Assembly: GCA_044892525.1 (NCBI GenBank)
Contig: CM097885.1
Coordinates: 12,650,001-12,714,000, forward strand
Origin: Schmidtea polychroa
Taxonomy: Eukaryota
Reading direction: 5' to 3'
DNA: 64,000 nt
Position numbers and translations under genes: made by a program. Below, piece after piece: positions 11,220 through 56,950 of this stretch; positions within the stretch are counted from its first letter, which is position 1; each line of letters opens with the position of its first letter. A model generated the notes under the pieces. It was not told where the DNA came from and did not search any database. It saw nothing but the letters and a program-made list of their open reading frames with translations.

Positions 11220-11387
11220 AAAGGATTATGACTGTATATAGATTGTAAAAAGTAAGTAGATAATATTTATTTATATAACAGTATGATATATTTTTATATA
11301 ACCGCGGTATCAATATTATATAACGATGGGGATAAATAATATAAAAATAAAATTGGATAAGGGTTGAAAAGTATATATAAATTAAGA

Positions 11388-11747
11388 ATGGAGCGAATAG
11401 GCGAGGAAGTAAATCACAGTACGACAACCGAGGAGATGTGGAAACAACAATGTGCAATGTTAACTCAAGTGATTTCGAATTTACAGGAACAAGGACTCGC
11501 TGTACAAAGAAGCTTAGTCGAAAGTTTAAATAAAGGCTTCAGTTATGTAAGAATAATCGAAGACCAACGAATAAAAATAGAACAAATGCAGCGAGAGATA
11601 GACCGAATATCACGACACAGCCAGGTGCAAGAAGAGGAGTTAATAAGAATCGCGGAAGAGATGGAGCGAGAGGAGATAGAAGACTGGTCAGAATGGTTAA
11701 CCAGTAGGGAAGAGGGCGGACAAGAGGCCGACTCTTCCAGCCAATAA
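11388..11747 (+). CDS. Accessory coiled-coil protein of the retroelement
   Basis: ATG at 11388 within ORF 11364..11747; E/Q/R-rich heptads; composition like the polyprotein. Confidence 0.6.
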   Translation: MERIGEEVNHSTTTEEMWKQQCAMLTQVISNLQEQGLAVQRSLVESLNKGFSYVRIIEDQRIKIEQMQREIDRISRHSQVQEEELIRIAEEMEREEIEDWSEWLTSREEGGQEADSSSQ

Positions 11748-11836
11748 ATATAACCTAAAATAGCAATGTAAATAACTGTAAATAAAAATACGAAACTGTA
11801 CCAGTAACGAATATATGTATATATATAATTATAGAA

Positions 11837-13225
11837 ATGGATAAGCGACAACGAGAAGAATTCAAAGAAATTGTTGAACAAGTCAGAAAGTCCACCACAA
11901 TTCGAATACACAACCATGTAACGTGTGGAATATGCAAGAGCTTATTAAGAGAACCTCACCAAACCAGATGTGGATGCAGAATGTGCAGAGAATGTGTAGA
12001 GGAGATAATAAAGAAGGGACCACAATGGTGCCCAGTATGTAAAGAAACCATGATAGCAAGTTTGGGAGATACAAACGAAGATAAAGCAGCCGTGAAAGAT
12101 ATGTTAAATTCAAATTTAGGATGTAAAAACACCCCATGCAATTGGCGAGGAGTGATATGGGAAGTGAGGCAACATATGGAGCAATGTGAGTATAAAATCA
12201 GTCAATGCAAACGTTGCCAAGAAGAGATTAAAGTCAATGAAGAAGCAGAACATCAAAGTCGATGCGAAGAAAGACTGGAGAAATGTGAGTATTGCGGAGA
12301 AACCGACACCTGGAAAAAACTAATCAGTCAACATCACAACATACAAGAGGAGAAAGTGTGCGCAGGGTTCAGAGGAGAATGTCCCAATAAATGCGATAAA
12401 TCTGGAGTAATAAGACTCGCTCAACATCTCAGAGAATGTGAAAGGAAAAAGATAACGTATGTGCTAGGAAAATGGGGATGTCAGAAACAATTACACCGAG
12501 GAGAATTACTCCAACATCTAGCAGAAAACGTATCAACACACGCGGAAATATGGTCAACGGTATTACAAGAAAACGAAAGGAAAACCGAAAACTTAGAGAA
12601 AGAAATGGTCTCGCTAAAAGCGTTGGTAAAAGAGTTATTGGAAGAAAAGGAAGCATTTGAAGGGGCGAGAACAAGTACAAAGATACAGACAGATCTAGTG
12701 GAAACTAGCAACATTATGGTGAAAGAACTACATCAAAAAGTAAGCGAATTAAACCTCAACGAATTAATACCAACGGCTCCATACATATGGAAAATAACGG
12801 GAGTAAAAGAGAAGATGCAGAGAGCGAGAAATGGAAAGGATACAACATTACTAAGTCCAGCATTCTACTCATGGAAAAACGGGTATAAAATGAAAATGAA
12901 AGCATACCCCAATGGGGATGGAAGTGCATACGGAACGCATTTCTCAGTATTCTTCTTGATGTGCAAAGGGCTATACGACGAGTTAATAGAATGGCCATTC
13001 AAAGCAAAAATAGACCTCGCAATGATGAACTATCAAAGTATACATGAACAGAGTTTCCATACAGCGGGAAACCTCGTATGTTACCAAAGGCCCTTGGAAG
13101 AAGAAGGACCAGCAACTGGAGCACCGAATTTCATCCTACAGCGGAAAGTAGAAGACATGACGAGAAACGACACTATATACATAAAAATAGCGGTGAGGCG
13201 AGACGGGAAGAGTAGGACTGAGTAG
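11837..13225 (+). CDS. TRAF-like protein (RING, TRAF zinc fingers, coiled coil, MATH), intronless
   Basis: CGICKSLLREPHQTRCGCRMCREC...CPVC; CKNTPCNW; MATH YIWKI...LLSPAFY...GYKM...YPNGDGS.YGTHFSVFF...EWPF...DTIYIKI. Confidence 0.95.
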   Translation: MDKRQREEFKEIVEQVRKSTTIRIHNHVTCGICKSLLREPHQTRCGCRMCRECVEEIIKKGPQWCPVCKETMIASLGDTNEDKAAVKDMLNSNLGCKNTPCNWRGVIWEVRQHMEQCEYKISQCKRCQEEIKVNEEAEHQSRCEERLEKCEYCGETDTWKKLISQHHNIQEEKVCAGFRGECPNKCDKSGVIRLAQHLRECERKKITYVLGKWGCQKQLHRGELLQHLAENVSTHAEIWSTVLQENERKTENLEKEMVSLKALVKELLEEKEAFEGARTSTKIQTDLVETSNIMVKELHQKVSELNLNELIPTAPYIWKITGVKEKMQRARNGKDTTLLSPAFYSWKNGYKMKMKAYPNGDGSAYGTHFSVFFLMCKGLYDELIEWPFKAKIDLAMMNYQSIHEQSFHTAGNLVCYQRPLEEEGPATGAPNFILQRKVEDMTRNDTIYIKIAVRRDGKSRTE

Positions 13226-13443
13226 AGAGACGAATAATTTTGTATATACTAATTGTAAATATCGGCATATATACCCCGTAAAATATTATATAGTAGTGTA
13301 GAAAAATCCCCCAAATCTACTAAAGGTAAACTTAAGCGTAAAACTCCTAAAACAACTCCTATAACGAATTGTAAAAATAAATAAATAATAAACCAGATAT
13401 AAGCGTACAACGTTGAGTTAATGATATCGTTATTTAGACAAAG

Positions 13444-14480
13444 ATGACTCAAGATCAAACGGAAGCCCCAAATAACGAAATAAACATCAGTAGAATACAT
13501 AGAGAAAGATGGGCCAAAGTGATGGCACAATTATCAAATCAAACACGAAATTACCTCGAAGAAGCGAGAGAATGGGAAAACCACCAGTTCCAGTGGTTAG
13601 TACAGAATTTACGGACGGAGGCCGAGGCCTGCAAAAGAGCCGCCAAATGGTCTGCATTAGAAAATACCAGGCAAGAGGCACACGGGCATTACCTGAAGCA
13701 GCTGGTACAGGAGTCAAGAAAAAGACTAACGGATGAGAATAAGAAGCGGGAAATAGAAAAACAAAAGGGGAACGAAAGACCCGCCAACTATTAGCAGAAG
13801 CCAGAAAGTGGAAAAAACAACATATAGAAATCCAAAAAGAGATGAGAGAATTGCCGCAGAGATTGGAACACGAGAGTGATCAAGGGAAATGGGAAGAAAA
13901 CCGGGATCAGAAAGAAGAGCTAAGAAGGCTCCGGAAAGTAGCAGCTAGAAGTCAAACCTGGCAGACCAAGGCCATGGAATTTGAAAAGCATCTGGCCATG
14001 AAACTGTCCATGAAGGAACAGGAGAATACCGCCATGGAAGAGATGATCCTGCAACAGTCAGGTAGAATCGTCGAACTCGTAAACAAGGTGGCAGACCTTG
14101 AAAGAGACAATAACGGCTATAAGGGGGCACTAGAACAAAGGAATATAGTGCTAGCCGGTAAGAACAAGAACTTGGAAAACGAGAGGAAGATGTATGACGA
14201 AAATATCAAGAACCTCGAAAAGGAGATCAAAAAATGGGAGAACGGCGAAAAAGCGGAGGAGTTAGAAAAACAGATAGAAGTAAGAGATGATGAAACCAGG
14301 TATCTGACATACCTGTTAGACGAGGAACTCAACGTGTCAAGAGCGCTAAGAGACGAAGTTCAGGAGCTTAGAGCGCAGATTCCCCGGTACTACATCCCAT
14401 TCGATCCCATCGCAATCCAACTACAAACGTCAATAGACAGCGATGAAGGGTATGTAGGCCAGGAAGAAACCTTTGTATAA
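13444..14480 (+). pseudogene. Accessory coiled-coil protein, probably one gene split by a frameshift near 13770-13790
   Basis: ORFs 13444..13794 and 13842..14480; the second frame is open upstream (LLAEARKWKKQH), echoing YLEEAREWENH in the first. Confidence 0.55.
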
Positions 14481-14531
14481 AGATAAGGAGAAAAGATAAA
14501 AAAAAAATATAAAAAGCGGGACCTGTATCCC

Positions 14532-14557
14532 AAAAAAAAAAAAAAAAAAAAAAAAAA
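14532..14557 (+). repeat. Poly(A) tract (A26) in accessory-gene spacer
   Basis: Direct reading. Confidence 0.9.
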
Positions 14558-14672
14558 TTATTAGTACGATAAAAATATTTACGGGACTGTAACCCTGATT
14601 ATATAAAATTACCTATAAATGTATAAGTATAAGCCGCACTGTAGCGCACTATTAATTGTAAATATTGTAGAA

Positions 14673-15380
14673 ATGAAAATAGAAGAAATATCCACCATGA
14701 CCGAGCTAGAAGAGGGAGAAATTGAAACAGACCCCATAAAAATGAAAACGCCGAAGGACGAGTTGATAGAGGAGAAACAGGAAAAAGAAAGGATGATAGA
14801 CAAATATATGGATGATCGAAGAATGATAAAGGTGCTAAAAAGGGAATGCAAAACATTGGAGGAAATAAAGAAAGAAGTAGAAGTAGAAAACGAATGGCTT
14901 CACGAACAAAGAAAGCGAGGGAGAAACTGGGAAAAGATCGCGGAAGAATTATGGCAGGAGAGAGCCAGTTTCAAGGCAAACGAAGTAATTGAAGATTATT
15001 GGAAAACGGAAGCAAGGAAACGACAAGAAACCATCAAGGAGTTAGAAAACCAGCTGGAAGTAAAAGTACAAGAAAGTACAGAAATGGAGAAATGGAATAG
15101 TAAATATCGAGAAATAGAAACAAAACGGCAGAAACAAAACTCAAAGACAAACGACCCAGAGGAACATGATTTCCTACAATGGGAACTGGAACGGAACCTG
15201 AAAGAAAAGAAGAAGGAGATAAAAACCTTGAAAAGAGAGATAAGACACTTGACAGACAAGGTCCACGAGAAAGAGAGACAACTAGAAATGTTGCCGGAAC
15301 TCCGACATAGAGTCATTAAAGCGGAGTCTAAATTAATGCGAATCCGGGAGAAAAACCCTAAAAAGAAACGACAAAATTAA
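14673..15380 (+). CDS. Accessory coiled-coil protein with basic C-terminus
   Basis: ORF 14619..15380, likely ATG 14673; long E/K heptads; ends KNPKKKRQN. Confidence 0.65.
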   Translation: MKIEEISTMTELEEGEIETDPIKMKTPKDELIEEKQEKERMIDKYMDDRRMIKVLKRECKTLEEIKKEVEVENEWLHEQRKRGRNWEKIAEELWQERASFKANEVIEDYWKTEARKRQETIKELENQLEVKVQESTEMEKWNSKYREIETKRQKQNSKTNDPEEHDFLQWELERNLKEKKKEIKTLKREIRHLTDKVHEKERQLEMLPELRHRVIKAESKLMRIREKNPKKKRQN

Positions 15381-15424
15381 AACCGACAAAAAGCGATGTA
15401 TATAAATGTGTATAAAATTACTAA

Positions 15425-16099
15425 ATGTATATCAGTAGTATGAGAAACAAACCGATCATAGTAATCCTGATGATGACGATAGTCCTTGATCTGGCAAGGC
15501 GACAACCCGTAAAACCCGAAATTGAACATATTCGAGACAGCAGAAAACCCAACCAAAAGACCGAACCAACAGCCAAATCATGCATCTATCCAAGTATCAT
15601 AAAAACCCGTCTTACCGACAATATTCGAGCCACCCGAACGTACGTCAACAATATCAGATTAATGTGTAATAACCACCCCATGTGCAAAATTATTGATAAA
15701 AGAATCCTGGACCAAATTCACCAACTCGATCAGCTGGAACAACAGGTCCAACATCAAGAAATACAAAACCCAGTCGAACCAGTAGAAATCGCCAAAGAAA
15801 TAAATGACCACCATGAACTCCTCTACGTAGTAATCGTCGAAACCACCGTAATCATGGTAATCATCCTCCCAAAAATCCATAATATCTACCAAGTTTGGAA
15901 GAAAAGTCACCCCGTACCGGAAAGATCGTCTCGAAGATCCCAAGAAGCTAATATGGCTGACGTAATCCAAGAAAATCTCCGACAACGAACCTCCATCGCA
16001 GAAACAGTCAGACCGTCCACAAGTCGCCGAATATACTACAACATCGAAACCCAACCACCAAATCACCCATCATCAATGGCAACCGAACAACAAACATAA
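15425..16099 (+). CDS. Accessory predicted membrane protein
   Basis: N-terminal hydrophobic IIVILMMTIVL, three Cys, TM-like LLYVVIVETTVIMVIILP, cytoplasmic tail. Confidence 0.6.
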   Translation: MYISSMRNKPIIVILMMTIVLDLARRQPVKPEIEHIRDSRKPNQKTEPTAKSCIYPSIIKTRLTDNIRATRTYVNNIRLMCNNHPMCKIIDKRILDQIHQLDQLEQQVQHQEIQNPVEPVEIAKEINDHHELLYVVIVETTVIMVIILPKIHNIYQVWKKSHPVPERSSRRSQEANMADVIQENLRQRTSIAETVRPSTSRRIYYNIETQPPNHPSSMATEQQT

Positions 16100-22232: not shown

Positions 22233-23807
22233 TTAATCTTGTAGATGTTGATTGATGAGATCGGGATCTGCTCCTGATTGAATATCATTATCGTCATTAT
22301 CAATGACATCAACCCCTAAATAATGACCATATGCAAAACTAGAGTTTTTCTCTACCCAAGCTCTTTTATCATCATGATTAGTTAAAGCAATCTTTGAGTT
22401 TTAAAAGGTAAAAAGCTGATGATTTCGGGTTCCTATTCTAGTCTGAGGTACAGAAATAACTGTGTTGTTGTTGTAACAGTCTAAATAGGATTGATGTTTT
22501 ATATCTGTACCTGGTAATTTTACGCCCTTAGCTCTCATAGTAGATTTATTTCCTAAAAGACTGTAGCACTTTGGTCGCAAGAAAACCCACTCACTATATC
22601 CTACACCCTTACTCTCATCCTTAAACTTTCCTATAACTGAGTCGAGTCTCTTAGAATATAAAGGATGAGAGGAATCATAATTTGAGGTGTCTAACAAGTC
22701 ATCCGAAATCATCGCTGGCAAAAGAACGTCAAGCTTTACATTTTTGACCTCTAAGAAGAAACTATCGGTATCACCCGCAACTATATTTATATCACAGTTA
22801 AACTGACTCCTATATTTTGCTAATTCTATGTACTGTAATTGATACATCCTTAGTTTGGATAAATCCAGCACTGATTGTCCGATGTAGCTGGGTCTATCCA
22901 AACATATAGACTCCTTATTGAGATGTACACCAAAAAGATCATCATCAATTTTGATGGTTTTTCTAAATGATGGTTTTGATGAATATGTAATTAATTTTTC
23001 CGCGGAATTACATAGTCGTAAATTTAATCTCTTCTTAAGGTTTTCAACGGATTTACCGTACAAGCTATTATTATACAATTTGAATAAATCTCTGTACAGT
23101 TCACTGCTTGCTTCAGCTCTTAGCTGTGTATTTTTATTTATATAATTTTTAAAAATCGGTGCTTGCTTGAATTTTATAGCCCTATGGATGTGTACAACTT
23201 TGGCACCAAGAGACAAATAAAGCTTGAGAAGCCTCCAATGAAGAACATGGTTCTTCTTTGGCCAATGCGTGAGCATCAACTTCTCAACTTTCGAACCAGG
23301 CGGGCACATTTTCTCAGGAACAAGAGGAAAGTCATTTAGAAAATCATGAAAAATTTCTGGAACATCTATATCCACTTCTATGGTATAACCATAGGGAAGG
23401 ATTTCAATGTCAGCATTCATGCACTCAAGCAATACATCATTCAATTCATCATACACCCAAGTGAAATCAGCAAAAGGAAGATTTTGGCTAAGATCCCAAC
23501 CATACAGATTATTTATATCAATATATAATAATTCTGTATTATCAGAAGCAGCAACGTAATGTTTGTTAACAAATGTTAACCCACCACGTATTCCTCCTTC
23601 GTAAAAATTGAACATTTCCATGTCCTGTAAAAGTTCTATAGGCTCAGTTAATGTCATAAGCGCTGAGGCCCATGACATACCCGGAATACCATAAAAGTTT
23701 AGAGGTTCTAGACCATTGTATGCAATGGCCTTGGCACGGAATTGTTGGAAATAGTCCGCAAGGAGGAATACATCCAATTTTTGATAAGTTAACATATAGT
23801 CAGCCAA
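22233..23807 (-). pseudogene. C-terminal half of Polinton protein-primed family B DNA polymerase (5'-truncated, in-frame TAA at 22401)
   Basis: YIDINNLYG, KLYNNSLYGKS, GDTDS, LRPKCYS; frame continues past the stop (NSKIALTNHDDKR) to TAA at 22233. Confidence 0.93.
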
Positions 23808-23898
23808 TTTAGTACAACTTCATCATTATACGACACAGATATTTTGAGTTGAAGAATCATTCACCTTCGCTGACGAATTATATATTGATAAACTTGAT

Positions 23899-24372
23899 GT
23901 GTTACTTAAATATTTAAAGTACAATTGTTCACACATATTTAAAAGTTTGGACATTGTGAAAGATTTGTTATTTACATTCAGTTTGAATGATGATATGTGC
24001 GAAGTTACATTTGATAAAAATTTTACAATTACACTTAGATTAGAGAAGCAGCAATATCGTGAAAAATCGGCTGGTATACGTAAACCAAGAATACTTGAAC
24101 ATCATCAACAAATGTTCATATATACTAATATTATTGAGCCTATAATAGTTGGTGATTCCAGTGTTCCTCTATTGAAATCGGTATGGATTGGAAAATACGA
24201 ACATGATGAAGTTATCAATATAAATATAGATAATCCTATGTATTTACCAATTTCAAGAACATGTATAAACAATATAGAAATAAATATTCGTGACGATAGT
24301 GGAAAACTTATAAACTTCCCAAAAGACTCAAAAACTCATTTGACACTACATTTTCGTAAAGTAGATGGCTAA
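23899..24372 (+). pseudogene. Polinton minor capsid (penton-like) protein, 5'-truncated
   Basis: MFIYTNIIEPIIVGDSSVPLLK...NPMYLPI...NIEINIRDDSGKLINF...LTLHFR. Confidence 0.8.
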
Positions 24373-24727
24373 TTCCGATATTATTAGTATGTATAGTGAT
24401 AGCCAATCTGGCGGTGAATTACCATTTTTTATTGGTAAACAGTACGGATCAGGTTGGTTAAAAACAAAAGGGAGATTTGCACTTCCTATTCTTAAACGTA
24501 TTGGTAGTTTTGGCATGAAAACTGCTAAAGATGTGATTATGAATGAACAGAAAATATTACCATCCCTAAAAACAAATGCTTTAGCTGAGTTAGGGAAGGT
24601 TCTACCTGGAGTTGCTGGAATGTTTCAAAAAGATACGCCTCCAGCCCCAGCTCCAAAACGTAAAGGACATGGAATATCGCGTATAAACAAACGAATGAAA
24701 GGACATGGAACTATATTTGCAAAATGA
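24365..24727 (+). CDS. Small basic Polinton protein (putative core / membrane-active precursor)
   Basis: QSGG and QYGSG followed by an amphipathic helix RFALPILKRIG; overlaps both capsid genes. Confidence 0.7.
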   Translation: MANSDIISMYSDSQSGGELPFFIGKQYGSGWLKTKGRFALPILKRIGSFGMKTAKDVIMNEQKILPSLKTNALAELGKVLPGVAGMFQKDTPPAPAPKRKGHGISRINKRMKGHGTIFAK

Positions 24728-25947
24728 TTTGTGGTAAATCCGAATTATGTATATTTGATAGACCATCGCCTCAAGCGGTAATCGAATTTGGGGCCTTTGA
24801 GGAAGTTTTTCCTATGAATTCAATTACTGGTAGTAGAAATGATATCGAGTTTTATATTAATGGTTCGCAAACTGAATATTTAGATTTGAACGATACGTTA
24901 TTGACTGTTCAGATCAAAGTTGTAGATAAAGATAGAAAAGTTTTGGATGCCAATGCGGATGTATTACCAAACAATTTCATGTTTCATACTCTTTGTAAAG
25001 ATGCAGTGTTGGGATTTAATAATATCAAGATTGAGGGCGGAAATAATACATTCATTCACAATTCTTTGATAGAAACTATTTTAAATTAAAATTCCGATAC
25101 TAAAAATACCTGTCTTACACCTATGGGTTATGCAGCAGCAGATGATGAAAGAAAAAAGTGGGTTAAAGGTTCAAAAGTATTCACTATGTGCTCATCATTA
25201 CAATTTGATTTTATGGATCAACCGAAATATTTACTACCGGGAGTTAATGTACATATTAGATTGAAAAGGTCCGATTTTGCATTATCTCTTACTAGTGCAA
25301 CTGGTGCACCAATATGTCAATTAGTTGATGCAAAATTATTGATGAGAAGAGTTCGAGTAGACCCGTCAGTATTAGCTGGTCATCAATTGGGTCTTAATTC
25401 AAAACATGCAATTTATCCTTTAAAAACAAAGGAAATTGTACAATTTGCTATTGCTAAAGGTGCTTCATCATTCTATAAAGAACAAATATTTGGTGACAGA
25501 AGAATGCCTAATTTTATTCTGGTAACATTTCAAAGTGAAACGCAATATAATGGGTCTTATACTGCTTCCAGCTCAATTTTCAAAAACTTTGGTGTTACTT
25601 CATTGACTTTGTCAAAAAATACTGATTATAGAGAAACATATATTCAAGATTTCGAGAATGACAATTACTGTGCGACATATATGCAGAATATTGTTAGAAA
25701 TCTTGGTTATTTAGATAAAAACTTGAATTGTGGAATAACTCTAGAAGAATTTAAAAGCAAATACCCATTTTTTACATTTGTTTTAGCTCCCGATTTTGAT
25801 TTAAATCAGAGTCAATTACCACAAAACGGGAATTTACGACTGGATATAAAGTTTGCAAAAGCCATTACTGATCCTGTGCATGTTTTAATATATGGAGTAT
25901 TTGAAAATGAAGTTCAAATTACTGCAAATAGAACCGTGCTAGTATAA
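24724..25947 (+). pseudogene. Polinton major capsid protein (double jelly-roll), in-frame TAA at 25087
   Basis: CGKSELCIF, YLDLNDTLL, QPKYLLPGVNVHIRLKRS, GNLRLDIKFAK; ORFs 24724 and 25123 in the same frame. Confidence 0.88.
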
Positions 25948-26052
25948 ATGTATACAGAAATATAGAAAGTTGTCATGGAGTAAGTTTTTTTTTGATACTG
26001 TTTAATTTATTAAAGTAGTTCTGTTCAGGTCAATAGAATTGGAAAACAGATA

Positions 26053-26361
26053 TTGGGAAATGAATTTGTAGGAGTTTTTCCTCTTGATAAAATCCCATAT
26101 TTGAGCAATAATCAAGCCATAATCGTCAATACTCAATCGTCTCATCTTGGTGGAGAACATTGGATTGCTATATATATGAAATCTAGTAATATATTTGTGT
26201 TCGATCCAATGGGTTTCTATTACCCTGCTTTGTTGGTCTCAAAACTACAAACAATGGGGAAACCTATTGTATATAATAAAACTATGTTTCAAAATCCATT
26301 GACACAAACATGCGGTCAACATTGTTTAGCTTGGTTGTTGTATAAAAAATTTGATGTTTAA
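26053..26361 (+). CDS. Adenain-type cysteine protease (5' end uncertain)
   Basis: VNTQSS..GGEHWIAIY, FDPMG, FQNPLTQTCGQHC (His-Asp-Gln-Cys). Confidence 0.9.
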   Translation: MGNEFVGVFPLDKIPYLSNNQAIIVNTQSSHLGGEHWIAIYMKSSNIFVFDPMGFYYPALLVSKLQTMGKPIVYNKTMFQNPLTQTCGQHCLAWLLYKKFDV

Positions 26362-26819: not shown

Positions 26820-26911
26820 ATTGGCTGATAGAGGAAAAATATTCAGTTTATATGGGAATGTGTCTAAATTCTGATTGGTTGAGACAGGGAAATATTCCTG
26901 ATCTATATAAA
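26820..26911 (+). promoter_or_regulatory. Putative Pol II promoter: two inverted CCAAT boxes and a TATA box
   Basis: ATTGG at 26820 and 26874, TATATAAA at 26904, ATG at 26979. Confidence 0.55.
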
Positions 26912-26978: not shown

Positions 26979-27596
26979 ATGGACGGAGAATTAACAAATA
27001 TTTTGAATGCCATGTTGATGGGCGAAAATGGTAATTTATTTTTATTTTTAATATTATTATATATCTTTTAGATAATTTATGGTACGAAGTTACTGAATTT
27101 GAAAATAATATGGACGATGCTCCGATAATTATCATTAGTGATGATGATGGTAAATAAATTTAATTATTTGTTAAATTATTTAACAAAACATTTAGATTAT
27201 TGTGAAATTGTTATGGCGAATGAAGGTGGTCCAATTATTATTAGTGATGACGGTAAATTATTTTATTTAATTGTTAAATTATTTAACAAAACATTTAGAT
27301 GAAAACATTCATATAAATGATGAAAATGTTGCCATAGAGGAAAATGTTGCCATAGAGGAAAATGATGCCCCAGAAATTGTTATGTCGACTGAAGATTGCC
27401 AAATTATTATTAGTGATGATGGTAAATTATTTTATTTAATTAATTGTTAAATTATTTAACAAAACATTTAGATGAAAACATTCATATAAGTGATGAAAAT
27501 GTCGTTACAAAGAAAAATGATGCCACTACTGCTATTGGAGAGGATTCAGATGATGATTCCGATGATTCTGATTCCGATATGGAATCAAAATGTTAG
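26979..27596 (+). CDS. Five-exon acidic protein (144 aa) with repeated SUMO-interacting-motif-like IIISDDD; may be the spliced N-terminus of pPolB
   Basis: Exons 26979-27030, 27072-27149, 27196-27252, 27299-27421, 27472-27596; four GT-AG phase-1 introns of 41-50 nt give an open frame. Confidence 0.75.
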
Positions 27597-27944
27597 TTTT
27601 ATTTATTTTTAAAGTATATTTTAAAGTAAATTTTCAATTATTTTAAATATTTAATTATTTTCTTAACAACTTAATAATTTCTTTAAAATAATATGGAAAT
27701 TGAAGCTTAAAATGTTTATGAAGATATTATGAAATATTATGAAATGGAAAATATTATGAAATGCTTCTGAAGATAAAATGTTTATGAAACTGATCCGGAA
27801 ATAAACTACATTTCTTCTCATATAATAATAATGCTTAAATTGTTCCTGAAATTATTAAGTTGTTAAGAAAATAAACTACATCTCTTCTCCCATTTAATCC
27901 CATTTAATATAATAATTTATTAGGTATTAATTGCCCTCTTTAAA

Positions 27945-28203
27945 TGTAGTCTGCATCGAGCATGCAGCTACATCAAACAATTTATTTATTTATTAGGTAA
28001 TAATTACCCTCTTTAAATGTAGTCTGCATCGAGCATGCAGCTACATCAAACAATTTATATATTTATTATGTAATAATTGCCCTCTTTAAATGTAGTCTGC
28101 GTCGAACATGCAGCTACATCAATCAATTTAATACTTATTGTGTAATAATTACCCTTTATTAAATTTAGTCTGCAGTGAGCATGCAGCTACATCAATAATA
28201 ATG

Positions 28204-28296
<93 letters not shown>

Positions 28297-28431
28297 TTTT
28301 TATTCCATACATATACTCTCTTTATAATAATAATATTATTTTAATATTTTAATATGTTTAGTTTGCAGTTAGCATGCAACTAAAGACTCTTATTATATAA
28401 ACATGTAGGTTACAGTGAGCATGTAACTACA
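27945..28431. repeat. Array of six 28-bp imperfect palindromes (first four at 73-bp period), interrupted by (AAT)n
   Basis: TGTAGTCTGCATCGAGCATGCAGCTACA-like units at 27945, 28018, 28091, 28164, ~28357, 28404. Confidence 0.85.
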
Positions 28432-28436
28432 GAAAC

Positions 28437-28467
<31 letters not shown>

Positions 28468-30245
28468 TCCCTATTATAGTTTACAAGACTTTATTTTTAT
28501 TTTACAATTATTAATATTTATTTCATTTTTATAATGTTTTTAAATGAAACATATATCAATAATTGTAAAATCCTTATAAGAACTAAATGATAATTGCGTA
28601 AAAGAAATATAAATGTTATATAAATACAATTTCATGACTAATATTAATTTATAAATATATTTAACAGGCAAATTTTATCCACATTACTGCCAGGCTTCAA
28701 CTGGTATTTCAAAATTATGTCACAAAGTGATGAAAAAATATTATGGTCTTAAATTTTATGGCATCAAGTATTATATATGCCCAATATGCGAGACCTCCCA
28801 TAGCATTAAATATTTAGAGTTTTACAGTAGAAATAAATCCCATTTAAATCAGTTCTCTTTAAATAAAAAGGATTTATTTAACAAACTGCAAAATACCTCA
28901 AAACCTGTAAATAATACAAAACATAAGAAACTTGTAAATAATATTACAAAACCTGTAAAACCTGTAAATAATATTACAAAACCTGTAAATAATATTACAA
29001 ATCCTGTAATTAAAACTAATGTAAATAATACAAAACATTTAAAACCTGTAAATAATATTACAAAACCTATAATTAATAATAATGTTATTAATGTAAATAA
29101 TAATATAAATAATTTAAAAAGACCTGCTGTTAGTATTGGGTCTGATGCTCCCTCTAAAATTAATAAATTAGATCAAATAACTGACAATGATGTGGTTAAT
29201 AATATTCAAGTAGGCGGTTCAGTCGATATTGACGATGAACCTGAAATCGAAATTAATTTTAAGGGGGTTCGAAAGAATCTACGATTTAATGTAGAGAAAG
29301 ATAACATCATTCAAATAGCTATAACAGATAAAATTGTTAATAAGTTAAATCATGAAATAATCGGAATGGGGTTGGTGAAAATACAATTCACCGTATTGAT
29401 TCAATTTGAAAAAGATGGTGAAATTAAAGATAATTTCTTCTCGAATAGGGCAGAGGCTATTTCAGAGAGTTTTCTAAGTGAGGGGGTTCACAAATTAAAT
29501 AATAAAATAGAAAAATTCACATATTTAGGTAGTGGATGGCGGGTTGTTAGAATCAAAGAAATAGATTTTATATTAACAAAATTTACGCATATGAATAGGC
29601 TAGCTGGACATAGTTACATCCCCACACCATATGCTTTAAAATCTAAAAATGCAATAGTAAACGTAAATAGTAAATTTTGACCCCATTTCCGACTGTCCAA
29701 TGAAATTATGTGATATTCCTAAATTCGAGATGAAAAATAAGGATTTAAATTTAGCAATAAATGTTTTAACTTATAGAACGACCTCAGCTAAGCCTTTTGA
29801 AAATATAGTTGACGATAATTATATTCCACATCATCCCAAATTGGATATAATTCACCGATCAAAGGTTATAGGTGGTGAACCCTTATACTTACTTTTATTG
29901 GAAGATGGTGATAATTTTCATTACACCGCAGTTTTTAACTTACAAAGATTAATGAATTGTCACTCTAACAGTGACTGCGGTGTTAGAATTAAAGTGAACT
30001 GGTGCCCCCATTGTCTTAACGGATTTAGACATAAAAATGCATTTGATATTCACGCTGCCTTATGCATTAAAAACCAGATAGGGACAACTCTATACACACT
30101 ACCTAAAGATAAAAACCTTACATTTAGTAATTTCGCCAAAACCATAACTCCGCCATTCGTGATATATGCAGACTTTGAATCAATTTTACCGGGGGATATA
30201 AAACACCATCAAAAGCATTTGCCAATAACAGCAGGTTTATTATTA

Positions 30246-32610
30246 CCGTATTTTAGCGGATATAGCGCACCCCCGCGTATAACGCGTATCCCTGTATACC
30301 GCGCGGATTTTATTGTATGTGTAAATACAAATTTGTATAACGCGCCCTGGCCTATAGCGCGCACCTACCTGATGCTGGAAAATTTCCAAAAATGTGGTTT
30401 AGTATACTTATTAATTATTCTCCATAAATTTTATTTGTAAAATAATTCATAATCTCAATATTAAACAGCGTTACATTCCGTGTTTGTTTATTGTTGCTGT
30501 TTGCATCACGTATTATTAATCACGAGACTCCGCGACAAAACAAGCCGAGTCATAAATTTAAAGTTCAGCGATGTAACAAACCACGTGTGAAATTCGTTTA
30601 ATTTTATTGGCTGGGTTGTCGGCGTGTGATGACGTCGTCAGCCTGATAAATTGCCACGTGGTTAGATCCGTTTAAAACTATTGGTCTTACTCCAACGGCT
30701 GACAAAATAAAACAACGAATTCTCTGTTCTCATAGCACAATATAAACTCATGATATTTTAAAACCCATCATAAATTATTCGATATGCCTAAAAGAAAGTC
30801 TTACACAGCTGATTTTAAGCTTCAGGTGATTAAGTATGCGAAGGAGAAGGGAAATAGAGCGGTGGGTCCGGAGTTTGGTGTTGGTGAGAAGTCGGTTCGA
30901 GAGTGGAGGAAGGACGAGACAGAGCTGGAAAGTATGAATCCGAGAAAAAGAGCAAGGCGTGGCGGCAAGGCGAGATGGCCACATCTGGAGGCGAATTTGG
31001 TGAAGTGGATTTTGGCTCAGAGAGAGAATAATCGAGCTGTATCGACGGTGGCAATTAAGGCAAAAGCAAGATTGTTGGCCGTTGAAATGAAGTTAGATGA
31101 TTTCGTACAATTGGGTTTACAAATTTATGCGGCGCAATAATTTGTCGATGCGTGCTCGAACAACAGTCGGCCAGCGACTTCCGGATGATTGGGAAAAGAA
31201 GTTGGATGATTTCAGAGAATTTGTTCATAAGGAAATCAGCCAACACGATCTCTCACCAAATGACGTCATCAACATGGACGAAGTGCCCATGGTCTTTGAT
31301 ATCCCTCCAACGCGATCAGTTGCTGAAGTCGGGGTTAAGACGGTCGCTGTTGCTACGACAGGACATGAAAGAACTTCGTTTACCGTCGTCTTAGCCTGCA
31401 CCGCTGGAGGCCAGAAACTCAAGCCAATGCTTATCTTCAAACGTGCGACAATGCCACGTGAACAGCTTCCAAGTGGTGTTGTCGTTACATGCAATAAAAA
31501 GGGTTGGATGAACACGGACGTCATGGGGATCTGGACAGACAAATGCTTCCGCACCAGGCAAGGCGGATTTTTCAAAAAGAAATCTCTCCTTGTTTTTGAT
31601 GCCATGACAGCTCACAAAGAGTCATCTGTTCAAAAGAAGATAAACGCAGCGGGCGCCCATATCGCCGTCATCCCGGGTGGCCTCACTTGCAAGCTTCAGC
31701 CACTGGATGTCGCTGTAAATCGACCATTCAAGACGTTTGTTCGTGAGGAGTGGGACAAGTGGATTTCAAGTGGGTCCCACACATACACACCAGCTGGTAG
31801 ACAACGCCGTGCCACATACGTTGAAGTATGCAAGTGGGTCATAACTGCATGGGAGAAAGTGAAGGTGACAACAATCACAAATGGATTCAAGAAGTGTGGA
31901 ATTATGCCCAGTAACGTTCCCGATGTTAGCGCCGATGACTCGACAGATGGAGAGGGAGACAGTGAAGCATCAAAAGCAGAGGGAAATGATGTGGCAATCG
32001 AGGAAGAGCGCCTACAGCGAGTCATGGACATGTTTCAGGCCAGTTCAGATGACGAGACCTTTGAAGGTTTCCAGGAGAGTGATGGCGAAGAAGAGCTTGA
32101 GGATGGCGGAGATTAAAACAGCAACAAGTTACTGAAATGACATGTGGGATCAAAAATAAATAAAAAAACATCGAAGTTTTATTTATTATATCTATAAAAA
32201 AAATTTAATATAAGATAACGTGAACATTAAAATTTATAATTTCTTTATTTCTATTTGTTTTCCTGACGTGTCAATACGAACAATGCAACTCCGGCTGGCG
32301 CCATTCGATCCATATTAAACACAAACTCGGTATCTGAAACATTGCTACATAACAGAAATAAATAGCAAATTATTATTTAATATTATAAAAATAAAATAAT
32401 TTGTTTAACTAAAAGTAAATCTGGTTGCAATCAAACGTAACATTAAAACCGATGGTAGGGTTACTGTCACATCATAAAAGTATTTCCACTGGCAATGCCG
32501 CCACGTGTAAAATATAAATCATAAAGCGCGCACCCACAGATACCGCGCATGGGGGGTGCGCGGTTTGTAAAAATGCGTATAACGCGCGCGTTATATGCGC
32601 TAAAATACGG
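30246..32610 (+). mobile_element. pogo-superfamily DNA transposon (2365 bp) with TIRs and TA TSD
   Basis: TA|CCGTATTTTAGCG...CGCTAAAATACGG|TA; removing it restores the pPolB frame (AGLLL|INNYNNSKFYYEFVG). Confidence 0.95.
30784..32116 (+). pseudogene. pogo transposase (Brinker-like HTH, CENP-B HTH, DDE_1), one frameshift near 31100
   Basis: RKSYTADFKLQVI; WVYKFMRRNNLSMR; NMDEVP, KGWMN, LLVFD, LQPLDV.VN.PFK. Confidence 0.93.
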
Positions 32611-35449
32611 TAATAAATAATTATAATAATAGTAAATTTTATTATGAGTTTGTTGGGGATGATTGCATCTTATCTTTCTTGCGTAAGGTGGAGGAAATTG
32701 CTATGACAATTGTCCTGCCATATTAGGAAATTAATGGGAAAAAGCCCATGCAAACCTTGTCTTTCGCTAAAGAGCGGGCCTTTCGTGATTCCAGAACTGT
32801 TATCTTTGTAAAAAAATTATTAGAAATAGAGTTAGGGATCATTGCCACTTCTCAGGTAAGTATTTAGGTGCTGCTTGTAGGAACTGTAATGTGTCTCGGC
32901 GAATTCAGAGACAGTTACCTGTGGTTTTTCACAATTTGAGGGGGTATGATCTTCATCATATTTTGAAGTATGGGCTAAATAATTTTCCTTCTTGGGAATT
33001 AAATATTATTCCGACCACTACCGAGAAATTCATCTCCCTCATCGTGTATATTAACAAACTACATGTTCGTTTTATTGACAGCATGCAGTTTGTTAATTCA
33101 TCTTTAGCAAAAGCGGTTAAGACTCTTTCCGATCTGCCTTTAACTTCTTCTGTTTTCGATGGCGCAATTGTTCGAGCCAAAGGTATCTTTCCTTATGACT
33201 TTGCCACATTTCTTGAGGTTCTTGAATCGACTCTTGAACTACCTCCGATCTGGGATTCTGTGTCTAATGATGAATATGCATTAGCCCAAGTTATTTGGAC
33301 TCAGCAAAATTGCAACAATATGTTAGATTACATGTTAACTTACCTGAAGTTAGACGTGTTTCTCCTCGCAGATTATTTTGCTTACAATGGTCTGGAGCCT
33401 CTTAATTTCTATGGAATTCCCGGTATGTCATGGGCCTCTGCGCTTATGACATTAACGGAATCCATTGAACTTTTGCAGGACATGGAAATGTTTAATTTCT
33501 ATGAAGAAGGGATACGGGGTGGGTTAACATTTGTTAACAAACATTATGTTGTAAGTTCTGAAGACACAGAACTCTTGTACATTGATATCAACAACTTGTA
33601 TAGTTGGGCTTTAAGCCAAAATCTGCCTTATGCAAACTTTGTTTGTGTGTATGAGAATTTTGATGGTGTGCTGAATGAATGCATGAATTCTGATATAGAT
33701 AACCTTCCATATGGTTATACTATGGAGGTATCGATATCCCTCAGTGTGTGCATGACTTTCTGAATGATTTTCCGCTTGCTCCGGAAAAGATGTGCCCGCC
33801 AAATTCGAAAGTTGAGAAGCTGATGCTCACGCATTGGCCAAAGAAGAACCATGTTCTTCATTGGAGGCTTCTCAAGTTGTATATCGAATTGGGGGCTATT
33901 ATTAAAAATGTACATAGGGCAATTAAATTTACGCATGCACCTATTTTTAAACAGTATATACATAAAAATACACAATTAAGAGCCAATTTCACGTGCGAGC
34001 TGTATAGAGATTTGTATAAACTATTTAATAACAGTCTGTATGGGAAATCCGTAGAAAACCTTAAAAAACGGATGAATTTGAATTCATCTGAAAAGATGAT
34101 TGTATATGCGTCAAAGCCGACTTTCAAGAAATCTATCAAAATTGATGATGACTTGATTGATGCTCATCTCAATAAGGATTCTATATGTTTAGACAGGCCT
34201 AGCTACATTGGCCAAACGGTGCTAGACCTGTCTAAACTGAGGATGTACCAGTTACAGTATATAGAATTGGCTAAATATAGAAATGAATTTAAATATGAGA
34301 TAAATTTCGTTGCCGGCGATACTGACTCCTTTTTTCTTGAGGTTAGGCACTCTCTTTTGCCGGCAATGATTCGTGACAATCTTTTAGACACTTCCAACTA
34401 TGACCCTGCACATCCCTTATACTCTAGAAACCTTGATTCTGTGATAGGTAAATTTAAAGATGAAAGTAAAGGTCTAGGGTATAAGGAATGGGTTTTCTTA
34501 AGACCCAAGTGCTATAGTTTGTTAGGGGCTAAAGATCATTTAAAAGCAAAAGGAGTCAGGTTAATAGGTACAGAAATTGGGCACGATTCATATTTAGAAT
34601 GCTACAATAACAACGTAGTATTTTCTGTGCCACAAAGTAAGATAGGGACGCGGAACCACCAATTGTACACATTCAAAAACAATAAAATCGCGTTGTCAAA
34701 CAACGACGACTAGCGGTTTTGGGTGAGGAAAAATTCCAGTCTCGCATTTAGTCATTATTTAGCACTAGATGACATAAATGATGATCAAATATTTGAAGAA
34801 GTTGGGCCACTATTCGGAGGATTAAGTCCAGATTTTGTTTCTGGTGATGAGGAAGTGGGTCCACTTTTCAATGGTTTAAGTCCAGATTTCGATTCTGGTG
34901 ATGATCCTAATGATGATGATGAAATAGATATAGATGATATTTTATTGTCAGACTAAACTGTGATATATGTTAATATATCGTTTTATTTTGAAAATCATTT
35001 CTTCTACATTGTTTTATTATCTAAAATTTTTATTGAAAACTCGTTATAGTTTTCACAATTCTTACAATTGTTAAACACTTGTATAAATATATTTATTAAT
35101 ATTGTTAAAGTTTTTATAAATCATGTAAGTGTTTAACTATTGAAAGAATTTGGTAGAAATATTTATTTGAAATGAATGTTGTAGTGAGCATACAACTACA
35201 TATATGAGTTGACAATATTAAAAAAAAAATAAGAACTATAAACTTGTATTTAAACTTGTAACAGAAAAAAAAATTTAGTTTGAGTATATATATATAGTAT
35301 AATATTTAGAATTTCTTTGTTAAAGTTTTGCCTTGAATATTTTTAGTAGTAACTTTGTGAACAGTACCCATGTGACTTGTTGAGCGTGACCAGTACCCAT
35401 GTGTGCAGTACCCATAGGGGGACAGAATATCTTGTCGGATAAACTCGGA

Positions 35450-43646: not shown

Positions 43647-44470
43647 AGTAGTGTGTATATATACCCAACCAACACAACCCTCCCAACTAAAACATACCTC
43701 CATTATGCTTAAACCATTAGAAAAACAACATAAAACCTATACTTTTATAGTATTTTAACCCCATATTTTAAACAACAACCACCCTTAATCTTTAAAGCCT
43801 CAAACTCAAAAGCTTCAAACTAAAAAGAGAATAGAAAAGAAAATGGCATTATGAAAAAGTTAGAGGGCTATTTGATCTTTATCAGATTATTGAATTTAAA
43901 TTATATAAATTAAAAAATAAATGAAAAATAGTAAAACTGCTCTGAGGAGACAGTGGTATTTTTATTTTTTTTTTCACTGTCCCCTCAACAGTTTTTTTTG
44001 ATCCGGATCATTTTTTTATTTATCAACCTCTTTCGTTTATCGAATCTCTTCCAATATACAAGCTGGCCAGACTCATACATCAGAATCAATCCGATAATAG
44101 CAGCACACCTTATTATTCGCTTCTCGCTCGAATACGATTTCATCGGCGTTTTAAGTGTGCTGCTCGAAAGTACAAATGAATTCGAAAGTGAATCCGAAAG
44201 AGGTCCGAAAACAACTGAGAAATAAATGTGCACATTAAAGAATCGATCCGGGGGTGTTCGAAAGACAGGTGGCGATAATTACCGGTTCGCCACCATCACC
44301 CGTTTCAATAATTTTTTTTTCATATTTATGTTTAAAAAATAAAATAATTAATAAAATAAATAAAATAAAATAAAAATAAATAAAATATACAACTACTTTA
44401 TAAATCTAAGATACCCACACTATTATTTTCAAATTTTTAATATTATTTTATGTTGAAAAAAAAACTAACC
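43647..44470 (+). repeat. Left TIR of Polinton B
   Basis: Near-identical reverse complement of ~57748-58567. Confidence 0.95.
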
Positions 44471-44539
44471 TCAGATGTGATTTGAACCGCTAGCATTTTG
44501 AACCACTGTGCCAGTCTATTCCCATTGCGCCATCAAGGT
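44468..44539 (-). ncRNA. tRNA-like Pol III unit (left)
   Basis: A box TGGCGCAATGG at position 8, B box GGTTCAAATC, followed by a T-run. Confidence 0.6.
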
Positions 44540-44643
44540 TTGAATTTTTGTCATTTTTTAAATTTTTATTATAAAAAATGAATAATATAAATCTTAAAAA
44601 ATAAAATGAAAACAGGGTATCCAATAAAAAATTTTTTCTAAAA

Positions 44644-47600
44644 ATGAATTGTAATATTTGCAATAAAGTTTTTAAAAATAAAACTGGATTAATTTCTCAC
44701 TTAAAATCGAAAGCTCATTTATTAAAAGAAAATAATCTTAATGATACAAATTCAAAACTTTGTCTTAAATGTAAAGGAAGATTTCTACATTCTGGATATA
44801 ATAAACATTTTGAAAATTGTATCGGGAAAAATAGAGAAATATTTACATGTCCTCATTGTAACTTTTCAACAAAACTAAATTTCTATTATTTAGAACATAT
44901 AAAAGAATGTAAAAATAAAAAACAAAATTCTGACGATGAGGAATGTCATTCAGAAGGAGAACCTGATCATGTTGAAAGAGAAAAATATAACTGGGATAAT
45001 TTTAATCATATAAATGAATTTCAATTAAAAATTAATGGGCCTGCAACTCCTGGAGAATATATAAATAAAAATAAAAAAAATATTAAAAATTCTTTCACTG
45101 AAGCTTTTAAAAATTATAAACCGACAAGGTATAATGTTATAAAATATAAAATTATAATCAAAGCAAAATACTGGCGAGGAGCAGAAGAAAAGACAACACC
45201 CTTAGATGTTGAAATTGGAATACCTTTTAAATATTTATTTTCAATTAAAGGATTTGATAAAACCATCAAAGAAATAATTAAAGCAGCAGAAGCAAAACAA
45301 GAGGAAGTAGAAAATGAATTAGGAGATTCAAACTTAGTATTCAACTCTTTCCAAACTTTAGTGATTGATTATTGGAGAGGATTACCACCCAATCCTAAAT
45401 CTTATATTCCTACACCCTTTAAATCTAAAAATGTTATAAATGTACAGAATAATGATAACAAATGTTTCATCTGGTCAATACTTGCACATTTACATCCTCA
45501 AGCAACAAATCCCCAAAGAGTTTCAAAATACAAACAATATGAAAATGAATTAATATTTCCCAAAGGATTCAAACACCCAATGAAACTAGAAGACATTCCA
45601 GAATTTGAAAAATTAAATAATCTTAAACTTAATATTTATGAACATGTTATAGGGAAAGAAATTATTCCAATTTATATTTCAGATAGTGGAACCAAGGATA
45701 ACGGAGCACAGGACAACGAGATATATCTTTTAATCTTGGAACAAGAAAATAATCAACATTATGTTTTAATAAAAAACTTTCAAGCTTTTACATCTCCAGA
45801 GAATCCAACTAGTGGAGGAGGAACATGTAAAAGATGTCTTCATTATTCAACAACTAAAAACTCTATGATTAAACATACAAGATTTTGTGAAAAAGATGAA
45901 CCAGCTTTAATTAAAATGCCTAATAATCCCAAGATGTATTTTAAAAACTTTTCAAATTTACTACAAACAGTTGGAGTTCTTTATGGTGACTTTGAATCTA
46001 TAAACCATAAACAAGATTTGGTTTATCAATATTTAAAAATAATAGAAAAAAATAAACTCATGGATTTATGGAACTCCTCAGGAGAGAAGATGAAACCAGA
46101 GAGGATGAAAGCCTTTCTAAGAAAAAGGAATAAACCTAATAGTGTTAAAAAAACTAAACAATTACCATCTGCTTATAAATTATTATTAAAAAGTAATTAT
46201 CCTGAACTCATAGAATCTAGAGAATATTCAATTCTAGGAGGTACCCCTGAAGAAGTCTTGAATCATTTTACTAAAAATATAAATGATCTAGAACATGAAA
46301 TATTTAAAATATTAAAAACAAAGTATCCTCAAAATATTTCTAATCAACAACAACAAGAATATGAAAATACTTCCAACTGTTGGATGTGTAAACAGAATAT
46401 TCTTCCTGATGAAAAAGTTATAGATCATGATCATTTAAAAAAGGAAAATAATTATCGAGGAGCAGCTCATAAAAATTGCAATCTTAATTGCCATACTCCT
46501 AAATTTATACCTGTTATATTTCATAATCTTTTTGGATATGACATACATCTATTTATTAAACATTTAGCAGCAAATGCTAAAAACTCTTTCAAAGTTATCG
46601 GCTTAACAAAGGAAAAATATAAATCAGTTGAATATGGAAAATTAAAATTTATAGACTCGTTAAACTTTCTTCAAATGTCTCTAGATGGAATAGCTAAAAC
46701 AATGAAACCAGAAGATTTTAAAATCAATCGAGAATTCTTGGAAAAAAATAATATTCCTCTAGAAGAATATCCTACATGTTTAGCAAAAGGAATATATCCT
46801 TATGACTATGTTGACTCGTTTGAAAGATATAATGAAACAAGTCTTCCTAACAAAGAAGATTTCTTTTCAAACTTACTACAATCAGGGATTACAGATCAAG
46901 AATATTCTCGAGCATTAAAAATGTGGGAATTATTCAAGTGTAAAACTTTAGGAGAATATACCAACATGTATTTATCCTTAGATGTTTATATTCTAGCAGA
47001 TTGCTTTGAAGAATTTACAAACTCTTTTGTTCTTAAACCTTATAATTATATAACTGCACCCTCTTTAGCTTGGGATACTATGTTATATACCATTTGGACT
47101 TCAAATATAGAAGATGCTGATAAAATTATAGATCTTTAAACTAAGCTCGATATGTTTAACCAAATTAAAACAAACATTAGAGGAGGAGTCTCTTCAGTAA
47201 TGGGGAATAGAGAAATAAAAGCTAGAAATGCAATAACTACTAGCCGAAGACTCTCTAAACACCCTGATGATCCATATATGAAAATTAACAATGAGGAATT
47301 AAAAGAATTATTAGAAACAATGAAAAATCCTATATTTATACTTTATATAGATGCAACAGCTTTATATTCAGGAATTATGACTCAATATTTACCAATGAGT
47401 GATTTCACTGAAATAGAGAACCCAACAGATGACCTTATGAAAGAAATACTTTCAACATCGAAAGATTCTCCAATAGGTTACTTTATAGAATGTGACCTCG
47501 ACTATCCAGATGATATAAAATCAGGAACAAGATATTTTCCTTTAGCTCCCATAAGAAGAAAGATTGATATCAACGAACTTTCTGAATGGCAAATCTCACA

Positions 47601-48924
47601 AGATAAACCTCCAACAATGAAACTTCTTTGTGATCAAACAGATCGAAGGTTTTATCTTTGTCACTATAGACTCCTCCAATTTTATCTCTCACGAGGAATG
47701 ATATTAAAAAAAGTTCATAGTGTCATAAGATTTAAACAAGCTCCATTCATGAAAGCTTTTATCGAGGAGAACATTAGGTGCCGAAACATTGCAAAAAGAG
47801 AAGGTAATCTTTTTAAAGATAATAATTATAAACTTTTAAACAATTCAGTCTTTGGGAAAACAATGGAGAATGTTGATAAATATACTCATATTGAACTCCT
47901 AACAAATACTACCAAAGATATTAAGCGTTATAATCGTATGCTAGGAAAGCCCACATTTAAAAACGCACAAGTATTTTATGAAAGTCTTACTGCAGTAGAA
48001 CTAAAGAATTTTGAGAAAACATATAATAAACCAATATTTATAGGGTTTTCAATTTTAGAACTTTCAAAATTACAAATGTATGAAACATATTATAACATCT
48101 TACAACCTATATACGGAGCAAATATATCAATGCATGCAATGGATACAGATTCAATGTTTTTAACCATAAGAACTCATGATTTACAAAGTGATATAGCTGA
48201 AAATCCTATACTTTCAAATTTAATAAATTCATCTGGAGAACTTTTTTCATTTAAAGATGAAAAACCAAATACTCCTATAGAAAATGGAATATTTATTCGT
48301 GCTAAACAATATTCATACGAAACATTTACAAATCCTGAATTTATAACTAGATCATTTATATTTAAAACTCCAGAAACAGAATAAACCATTTCACATAGAT
48401 ATCCTATATTTCCTAAAGAAGAAAAACCCGTAAAGGATAACAGATGTAAAGGAATACAGAAATCAGTTGCAAAGAATCTTTCTCATCAAGATTATATAGA
48501 TACATTGAATCCAAATCATAAAGATAAAATTGATGAAATACATCAACTTAAAAGTGAAAACCATGATATTCACTTGATAGAATCTCAAAAAGTATCATTA
48601 TCAAATTATGATGATAAGAGATTCATACTAAGTGATTTAAAGACAACTCTACCTATTGGAAATAATTTAATCCCTATAATAAAAAATCTAGAAAAGTTGA
48701 ATAAGTTATATGATACAAAGATTACTGATCTTGATATTTATAATGTTGAAATTATTTATCCCGAGAGAGAAATCGAGAAACCTTTATATTCTCAAGTTTT
48801 TAATCCTATATGTTTAGAACTTAAATATTTTAATACTGATCCTGAATATATAAAAGGTCTAAGTGATAAAGAATTTAAAGATCATAAATTAATGATTCAT
48901 AGGTTGGCTTTCAACCATAACTGA
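44644..48924 (+). pseudogene. Polinton pPolB with N-terminal zinc fingers; two in-frame TAA stops (47137, 48382)
   Basis: CNIC...HLKSKAH, YGDFES, DHDH, FHNLFGYD, KGIYPY, YIDATALY, NNSVFGKT, DTDS, DDKR; three ORFs in one frame. Confidence 0.96.
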
Positions 48925-49027
48925 AACCAACGATATTTAATAATAAAATGTCGACAATTAATTTAAGCAACTATAGCAACCTGATCTACTTTTTTAAAAA
49001 TACACCCATTTTATAAGTAAGAATTCT

Positions 49028-49606
49028 TTAACCATTTTTCTCGAGATCTTTTTTATTACTTATAACATTAGCCACCATGCCCTCCCTTTTTAATCTTATA
49101 ACCTCATTCTTTATATCTTGTATTATTTGATTTGATTTCATTATTTCTTCGTCTGTCAGGATTCCATCTTCCAAAGCTTTTAATTGAAATAAAAATAATT
49201 TAGAGATTCCTAATTCTATTGATAAACAAACTTCTCTATATAAACTTTTCTTTTTAGAAGTATAAGATAATGAAACTATTTCAGTTAAGAAACCATCAGC
49301 CACAGAAATACTTCCAAGTATTACAGGTGCAAGAGTAACAACTGGTAAAGTTATGGGTAAAATAACTGTTAATATTGCAGATGCAAATCCTAAAGAATAA
49401 CCTATAACTTTTAAAACTGTATTCCCTTTATTCCATCTATTTTTAATTTTTTTATAATGCTTTAATAAATCTTGTAAATGTAAGGTTTCTGATTTAAATT
49501 CTTTTACTCTCATAATTTCAAGTTCTGTGGGAGCCGAGGCCTTGGAAGAATAATATCCTGATGATCTCAATTCTGGGTAAATTTTTTCTTCTCTTACTTC
49601 TTCCAT
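49028..49606 (-). CDS. Polinton membrane protein
   Basis: 192 aa with hydrophobic hairpin VIGYSLGFASAILTVILPITLPVVTLAPVILG. Confidence 0.7.
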   Translation of the reverse strand: MEEVREEKIYPELRSSGYYSSKASAPTELEIMRVKEFKSETLHLQDLLKHYKKIKNRWNKGNTVLKVIGYSLGFASAILTVILPITLPVVTLAPVILGSISVADGFLTEIVSLSYTSKKKSLYREVCLSIELGISKLFLFQLKALEDGILTDEEIMKSNQIIQDIKNEVIRLKREGMVANVISNKKDLEKNG

Positions 49607-49614
49607 TTTAATAA

Positions 49615-50624: not shown

Positions 50625-50648
50625 TTATTAATAATTTAAAATGAATCT

Positions 50649-51413: not shown

Positions 51414-51461
51414 TTCTTTAGTAGTAAATTCATATAGTAAAAATCCTTATAGTAAAAATCC

Positions 51462-52776: not shown

Positions 52777-52798
52777 TTTAATGGTATCAAAAATGGTA

Positions 52799-54175: not shown

Positions 54176-54186
54176 GGCTTGTCGAC

Positions 54187-55590: not shown

Positions 55591-55607
55591 TTTAAAATGT
55601 TAAAATA

Positions 55608-56894: not shown

Positions 56895-56950
56895 TTTTAT
56901 ATATTAAAATTTACACACACAAAATAGGATTAAATAAATATATTATGTAA

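Follow-up and report, generated by a model that had tools for sequence, protein, structure and literature searches.

A probably spliced, conserved leader with a predicted SUMO-interacting motif on the DNA polymerase of a planarian Polinton

Polinton/Maverick elements (adintoviruses) code for a family B, protein-primed DNA polymerase (pPolB) with terminal-protein and vOTU domains, and the gene described here belongs to the same family by homology (PMC11161782, PMC8502044). Intact vertebrate Mavericks were reported to be intronless (PMC8097293), whereas the present pPolB likely starts in 3-5 small coding exons. Neither 'SUMO' nor 'splic' occurs in the passages of PMC11161782 that were searched, and no report of a spliced Polinton polymerase, or of one bearing a SUMO-interacting motif (SIM), was found in the literature searched, subscription papers and Repbase lying outside that search. 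In dinoflagellates, introner-bearing Polinton-like elements likewise contain spliceosomal-type introns, most of which come from host intron-making transposons that landed after integration (PMC11957031); the leader introns described here, in contrast, are inherited with the element, keep one phase and multiply together with their exon. In adenoviruses, where a related protein-primed gene serves replication, the E2B mRNAs for pTP and Ad-pol likewise consist of upstream exons spliced to a long terminal exon (PMC11304566, PMC9499273), and shared leader exons are spliced alternatively to separate pTP and polymerase exons. Unlike in adenovirus, the Polinton leader exons all look coding, their introns are host-sized (41-50 nt) and the element integrates. 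The adenovirus leader adds only a few residues to the protein.

The locus lies in a 64-kb stretch of Schmidtea polychroa DNA (the window), taken from an assembly of 781 Mb. Upstream of a pPolB gene, small exons were predicted in a previous sequence-only reading. We interpret these exons, with a probability of roughly 60%, as the regular spliced 5' end of pPolB, encoding an acidic, fast-changing leader with a predicted SUMO-binding Ile-Ile-Ile-Ser-Asp-Asp motif. The features of the window copy are as follows.

23847..26360, + strand: upstream genes of the element, capsid-module-like ORFs and a broken protease-like frame
26874..26911, + strand: promoter-like pair, inverted CCAAT box (ATTGG, 26874) and TATA box (26904)
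26979..27030, + strand: leader exon 1 with the start codon; a second exon-1 type takes its place in other copies
27031..27071, + strand: intron 1, 41 nt, phase 1
27072..27149, + strand: leader exon 2, conserved W-Y-x-V-T-E word and first SIM-like motif
27150..27195, + strand: intron 2, 46 nt, phase 1
27196..27252, + strand: leader exon 3 (duplicated unit), second SIM-like motif
27253..27298, + strand: intron 3, 46 nt, phase 1, 91% alike to intron 2
27299..27421, + strand: leader exon 4 (duplicated unit), third SIM-like motif
27422..27471, + strand: intron 4, 50 nt, phase 1
27472..27591, + strand: leader exon 5, Asp/Ser-rich; its last base is the first base of a split cysteine codon
27592..28667, + strand: fifth, long intron of 1076 nt, phase 1; across 67 complete copies its length is 755-1481 nt
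28668..28729, + strand: start of the main pPolB exon before its first ATG, remainder of a C-C-H-C zinc module
28730..29680, + strand: first open piece of the main pPolB exon, ending at a stop in the window copy
29700..34713, + strand: remainder of pPolB, broken into several frames

All coordinates of the five leader exons and four short phase-1 introns proposed earlier were confirmed on the + strand of the window copy, and all four short introns have the form GTAA..TTTAG. The near-identity of introns 2-4, attributed by the sequence-only reading to exon+intron duplication, was borne out: they are 88-92% alike (70% for intron 1 against intron 2), and the duplication is visible as direct-repeat families D13, D15 and D16. 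Read directly from the spliced frame, exons 2-4 each close with IIISDD(D), as had been noticed, the final D of exons 3 and 4 being supplied by a split codon. The pattern GGTAAWT..TTYAG with an AT-rich span of 38-55 nt was matched four times on the + strand of the 64-kb window, each time in the leader; since the pattern was derived from these same introns, the result shows rarity, not splicing. As to the suggested upstream CCAAT/TATA promoter, a TATA box is present at 26904, but the CCAAT box lies on the other strand (ATTGG at 26874). A spacing of 25 nt between the two boxes occurs more often than any other in the 78 modelled copies, 73 of which fall into the six classes listed; presence of the pair was a requirement of the models. 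Most loci with a type-C leader do not match the promoter pattern. The W-[YF]-[QE]-V-T-E word of exon 2 (27072-27095) is retained in all main leader types, and its W-Y-x-V part could be read as a candidate ATG8-binding (LIR) motif.

The long intron has a donor GTTAGT at 27592 and an acceptor ending at 28667, in frame with the downstream ORF. The proposed in-frame join to pPolB thus holds for donor, acceptor and frame, but the first ATG of the ORF is at 28730, 20 codons past the acceptor, and not at 28727. The branch-like CTAAT at 28638 is present in the window but kept in only 35 of 95 copies, with TTAAT in 59. Downstream of the ATG, the piece 28730..29680 encodes a C2H2-like finger, an Asn/Lys-rich linker and the start of the conserved body; a single-sequence fold of this first main-exon piece gave a mean pLDDT of 32. 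A pogo/Tc5-type DDE transposon (ORFs 30784-32116) interrupts the window pPolB, and the joined leader-pPolB frame halts after 480 codons. As its pPolB is broken, the window copy cannot make the full fusion; it is a dead member of the family that carries three motifs. The long intron also contains 73-bp tandem units (27915..28195), each with a hairpin-forming imperfect palindrome (fold z -4.5) and numbering 2-10 per copy, besides one larger inverted repeat at 28490-28580. This layout resembles that of the hr enhancer/origin repeats of baculoviruses.

The polymerase assignment is supported by a PF03175 match on the window fragment 33083-33760 (E 1.7e-07) and on close homologues; the full pPolB frame of one sister copy gave no PF03175 row. 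Sister copy L197 encodes an rve integrase (E 1.6e-07, just under the cut-off) with a chromodomain, a part missing from the window copy, and a packaging ATPase (Pox_A32, E 2e-07). The ORFs at 23995-25947 and their equivalents in L197 had no Pfam capsid match, and the protease-like frame was identified by eye; the names given to the ORFs at 23847-26360 are tentative and follow from position and motifs. At 22316-23795, where the left part of the element would be expected, there is instead an inverted piece from the 3' end of a related pPolB, 75-80% alike to 33378-34343. A second Polinton with long terminal inverted repeats lies at 43647-58567; its pPolB begins at an ATG, with a C2H2 finger near the repeat, and no leader was seen by eye. 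The giant Gypsy element at 3-16099 fits the Burro elements of planarians (PMC6431247); it encodes a fusion glycoprotein of Monjiviricetes type as well as RT, integrase and a RING-MATH (TRAF/MATH) ORF.

A 62-aa search of the assembly gave at least 150 matches at 90-100% identity, indicating a large family. Of 101 copies tried, the acceptor was located in 95 and 78 were modelled with any phase allowed; six loci had no acceptor found, 17 more no model, and 11 further models lie outside the 67 complete chains. As the copies are related to one another and were selected for their similarity to the window, the counts do not represent independent events. The suggested comparison of intron phase in sister elements came out in favour of splicing: 288 of 296 introns in the 78 modelled copies are phase 1 (72 models are phase 1 throughout), and AG is retained in 92 of 95 acceptors. 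The lengths of the short introns vary by single bases, with no more than 8 of 198 being multiples of three, and long-intron lengths are spread 22/22/23 over the three frames in the 67 complete copies. That all internal exons are multiples of three in length was not counted as evidence, the set having been selected as phase 1 throughout. At least four leader types, differing in exon and intron sequence, sit on main exons that are ~95% identical. In 60 four-exon chains, variants of exons 1, 3 and 4 occur in seven of eight combinations, and among four copies whose main exons start identically, two different exon-1 types were found; both results suggest that copies have recombined. Purifying selection acts on exon 2, with ratios of 0.13, 0.13 and 0.2 in the pairs tested (one of the type pairs with ratio 0.13 differs by 10 synonymous and 6 replacement changes); exon 1 is less clear (0.24, 0.43, 0.59 and 2.2). 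A tree took in 43 of the 87 labelled copies and had few supported forks. No relatives of P0001 were found in the metagenome and viral contigs scanned. Phase, frame, purifying selection and conservation across copies agree with the earlier claim that the exons are coding and in frame with pPolB. The conserved leader of the Polinton polymerase is real, and we are fairly confident that it is spliced onto pPolB regularly.

Contigs from sequencing runs presumed to be RNA were inspected for the five junctions that the sequence-only reading had named. In run X1 (probable RNA), one contig of sister locus L146 joins the end of exon 2 directly to exon 3: its loose letters before exon 3 are 14 letters equal to the end of exon 2, and the junction sequence has no match in the assembly. 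This single joint, from a subfamily other than that of the window copy, supports one junction in a sister copy; for the others no joint was seen. Unspliced sequence across intron 2 or the long-intron acceptor was found in further contigs of X1 and X6, which may derive from DNA or from RNA prior to splicing. The long-intron joint was not seen in contigs on L146, nor any splice joint of the window's own leader in three presumed-RNA runs and one run of unknown kind; on the sister copy, run X7 gave no contigs and X8 one. Contig alignment skips AT-rich repeats at introns, and missing joints hence prove nothing.

A SIM has been described as a four-residue core with at least three Val/Leu/Ile and flanking acidic and phosphorylatable Ser residues (PMC12751080, section 13). 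The leader motif agrees with this definition, as had been claimed: the cores are IIII (exon 2), PIII (exon 3) and QIII (exon 4), each followed by S-D-D(-D). The strict SIM pattern used for counting is matched by two of the three window motifs. The viral SIM proteins HSV-1 ICP0, KSHV K-bZIP/LANA, EBV BGLF4 and flavivirus NS5 have a similar core and acidic/serine flank (PMC12751080); the leader has no sequence relation to them, and none is a Polinton protein. Among 87 labelled copies one motif is present in 80, two in three, three in one (the window) and none in three, the latter being models of damaged copies. Poly-SIM as a design is thus not upheld. Another leader type contains an independent triple exon+intron unit (L245), a double one (L248) and several motifs in one exon (L259), and the triplication accordingly arose at least twice. 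SUMO is our best guess for the partner. The leader motif also resembles those of DAXX and PML. That the leader really binds SUMO is predicted at slightly better than even odds. The host SUMO gene was not found in the assembly, where a Pfam search gave ubiquitin-like domains and three motif patterns had no match. Many ubiquitin-like domains lie inside open frames of more than 1000 codons genome-wide and are possibly fused to a transposon protein.

The other spliced pPolB families of this genome likewise have phase-1 mini-exons and the split cysteine codon, but three-exon leaders without a SIM-like motif; one has the motif in the linker instead. Family F2 (L201-L230) has an AG acceptor before the zinc module in 30 of 30 loci; its leader exons were not located within the 1.5 kb examined. 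F3 and F4 split the same zinc-module cysteine codon with a phase-1 intron. In F3 (L261-L265), two pPolB starts lie head to head, 2-6 kb apart, each with a spliced leader.

The motif could have arisen without selection, the leader being spliced on but serving as a near-neutral acidic spacer, with a motif due to composition or to another partner and a copy number reflecting slippage noise. Composition by itself yields one SIM-like match in 5-14% of shuffles (P 0.05-0.14); two matches as in the window have P 0.008, but both stem from duplication. The N-termini of 113 distant pPolB homologues, taken from intron-blind gene calls, are not enriched for SIM-like motifs (1 observed, 2.0 expected), by which SIMs as a general pPolB trait were rejected. 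Repeats of a non-SIM kind expand just as freely in the final leader exon, and F3 offers nothing beyond looser Val-Val-Glu-Ser repeats, which do not match the strict pattern. A neutral spacer is nevertheless rather unlikely, given that IIISDD is written by five codon strings and kept, beside flanks that cannot be aligned between leader types, while its position relative to the introns shifts between types. Moreover, F2 and F4 have strong matches at another position of the same N-terminal zone: in 26 of 30 F2 loci a pair of SIM-like motifs follows the zinc finger, and F4 has its pair behind a basic patch, its leader being free of the motif. The comparison of copies suggests that the motif is a trait of this clade and likely selected.

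Two further explanations were considered. One of the two products inferred by the sequence-only reading was an anti-silencing protein; on this view, alternative processing would give a separate poly-SIM protein of 144 aa, able to sequester SUMO and so to counteract silencing. It is correct that a kept long intron yields 144 aa, ending at the TAG at 27594-27596. Among the 67 complete chains, 36 have the last donor GTTAGT, which contains this in-frame TAG, and the other 31, with GTAAG-type donors and no such TAG, stop within 10-37 codons in other read-through tails. AATAAA words occur in the long intron; in flies, piRNA-guided silencing depends on SUMO (PMC8490990), and in a planarian PIWI acts on Polintons (PMC8532177). 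However, the stop is a by-product of one donor variant, the tails differ between types, most copies have one motif and AATAAA is a frequent word where DNA is AT-rich. The contigs, which cannot reveal transcript ends, showed none. Alternative splicing into a separate protein is not sustained and appears improbable, and no support was found for an anti-silencing role. Still less probable is that the upstream exons form a small gene of their own and that pPolB, with a promoter within the 'intron', begins independently at ATG 28730. All six aligned families (35-44% identity) have this methionine as an invariant residue, 49 of 95 copies contain a TATA-like word 230-330 nt ahead of the acceptor (28394 in the window), and one X1 contig runs unspliced from 40 nt inside the long intron into the main exon. 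Together, methionine and TATA-like word make a leaderless form of pPolB possible. Yet two cysteines in the 20 codons before the ATG are equally invariant in these six families, a stop precedes the acceptor by 3-5 codons in 40 of 40 copies, and the split cysteine codon is common to three families. The full C-C-H-C module is uninterrupted in the distant homologues P0025, P0035, P0039 and P0076, with the first cysteine in one frame (twice in P0076), which indicates that the last splice supplies this cysteine. A search for longer proteins matching the 68-aa zinc region found none. The long intron is probably not optional, as its removal seems required to complete the conserved module.

If the exons are the regular 5' end of pPolB, host RNA polymerase II would start at the CCAAT/TATA promoter and the host spliceosome would remove all five introns, giving one polypeptide of leader, zinc module, linker, predicted terminal-protein and protease domains, and polymerase; the 144-aa form would be a fallback from intron retention. 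With every intron in phase 1, the frame survives when a whole exon+intron unit is duplicated, deleted or exchanged between copies, and this would set the motif count at one to three. It has been hypothesized that the polymerase's own vOTU protease may cut off the terminal-protein part (PMC11161782). In that case the leader would stay on the protein that primes and caps the linear DNA ends, and could dock replicating DNA on SUMO-rich nuclear sites.

Beyond the spliced leaders of the other families of this genome, the locus adds a conserved, relocating SIM-like motif and a single junction contig. Since Polinton genes are treated as intron-free, ORF callers cut polymerases such as these back to the first ATG, losing 80-145 leader residues as well as half a zinc module. 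As a tentative and rather doubtful generalization, a flatworm-type Polinton clade may carry a spliced, exon-shuffled SUMO-binding leader whose SIM number is tuned by exon duplication and recombination, with sister families placing SIMs elsewhere in the N-terminus and host conflict taking place at SUMO-marked nuclear sites. Should the motif bind SUMO, it would give a replication protein of a Polinton a concrete point of contact with the host, in a group of hosts whose Polintons are PIWI-silenced.
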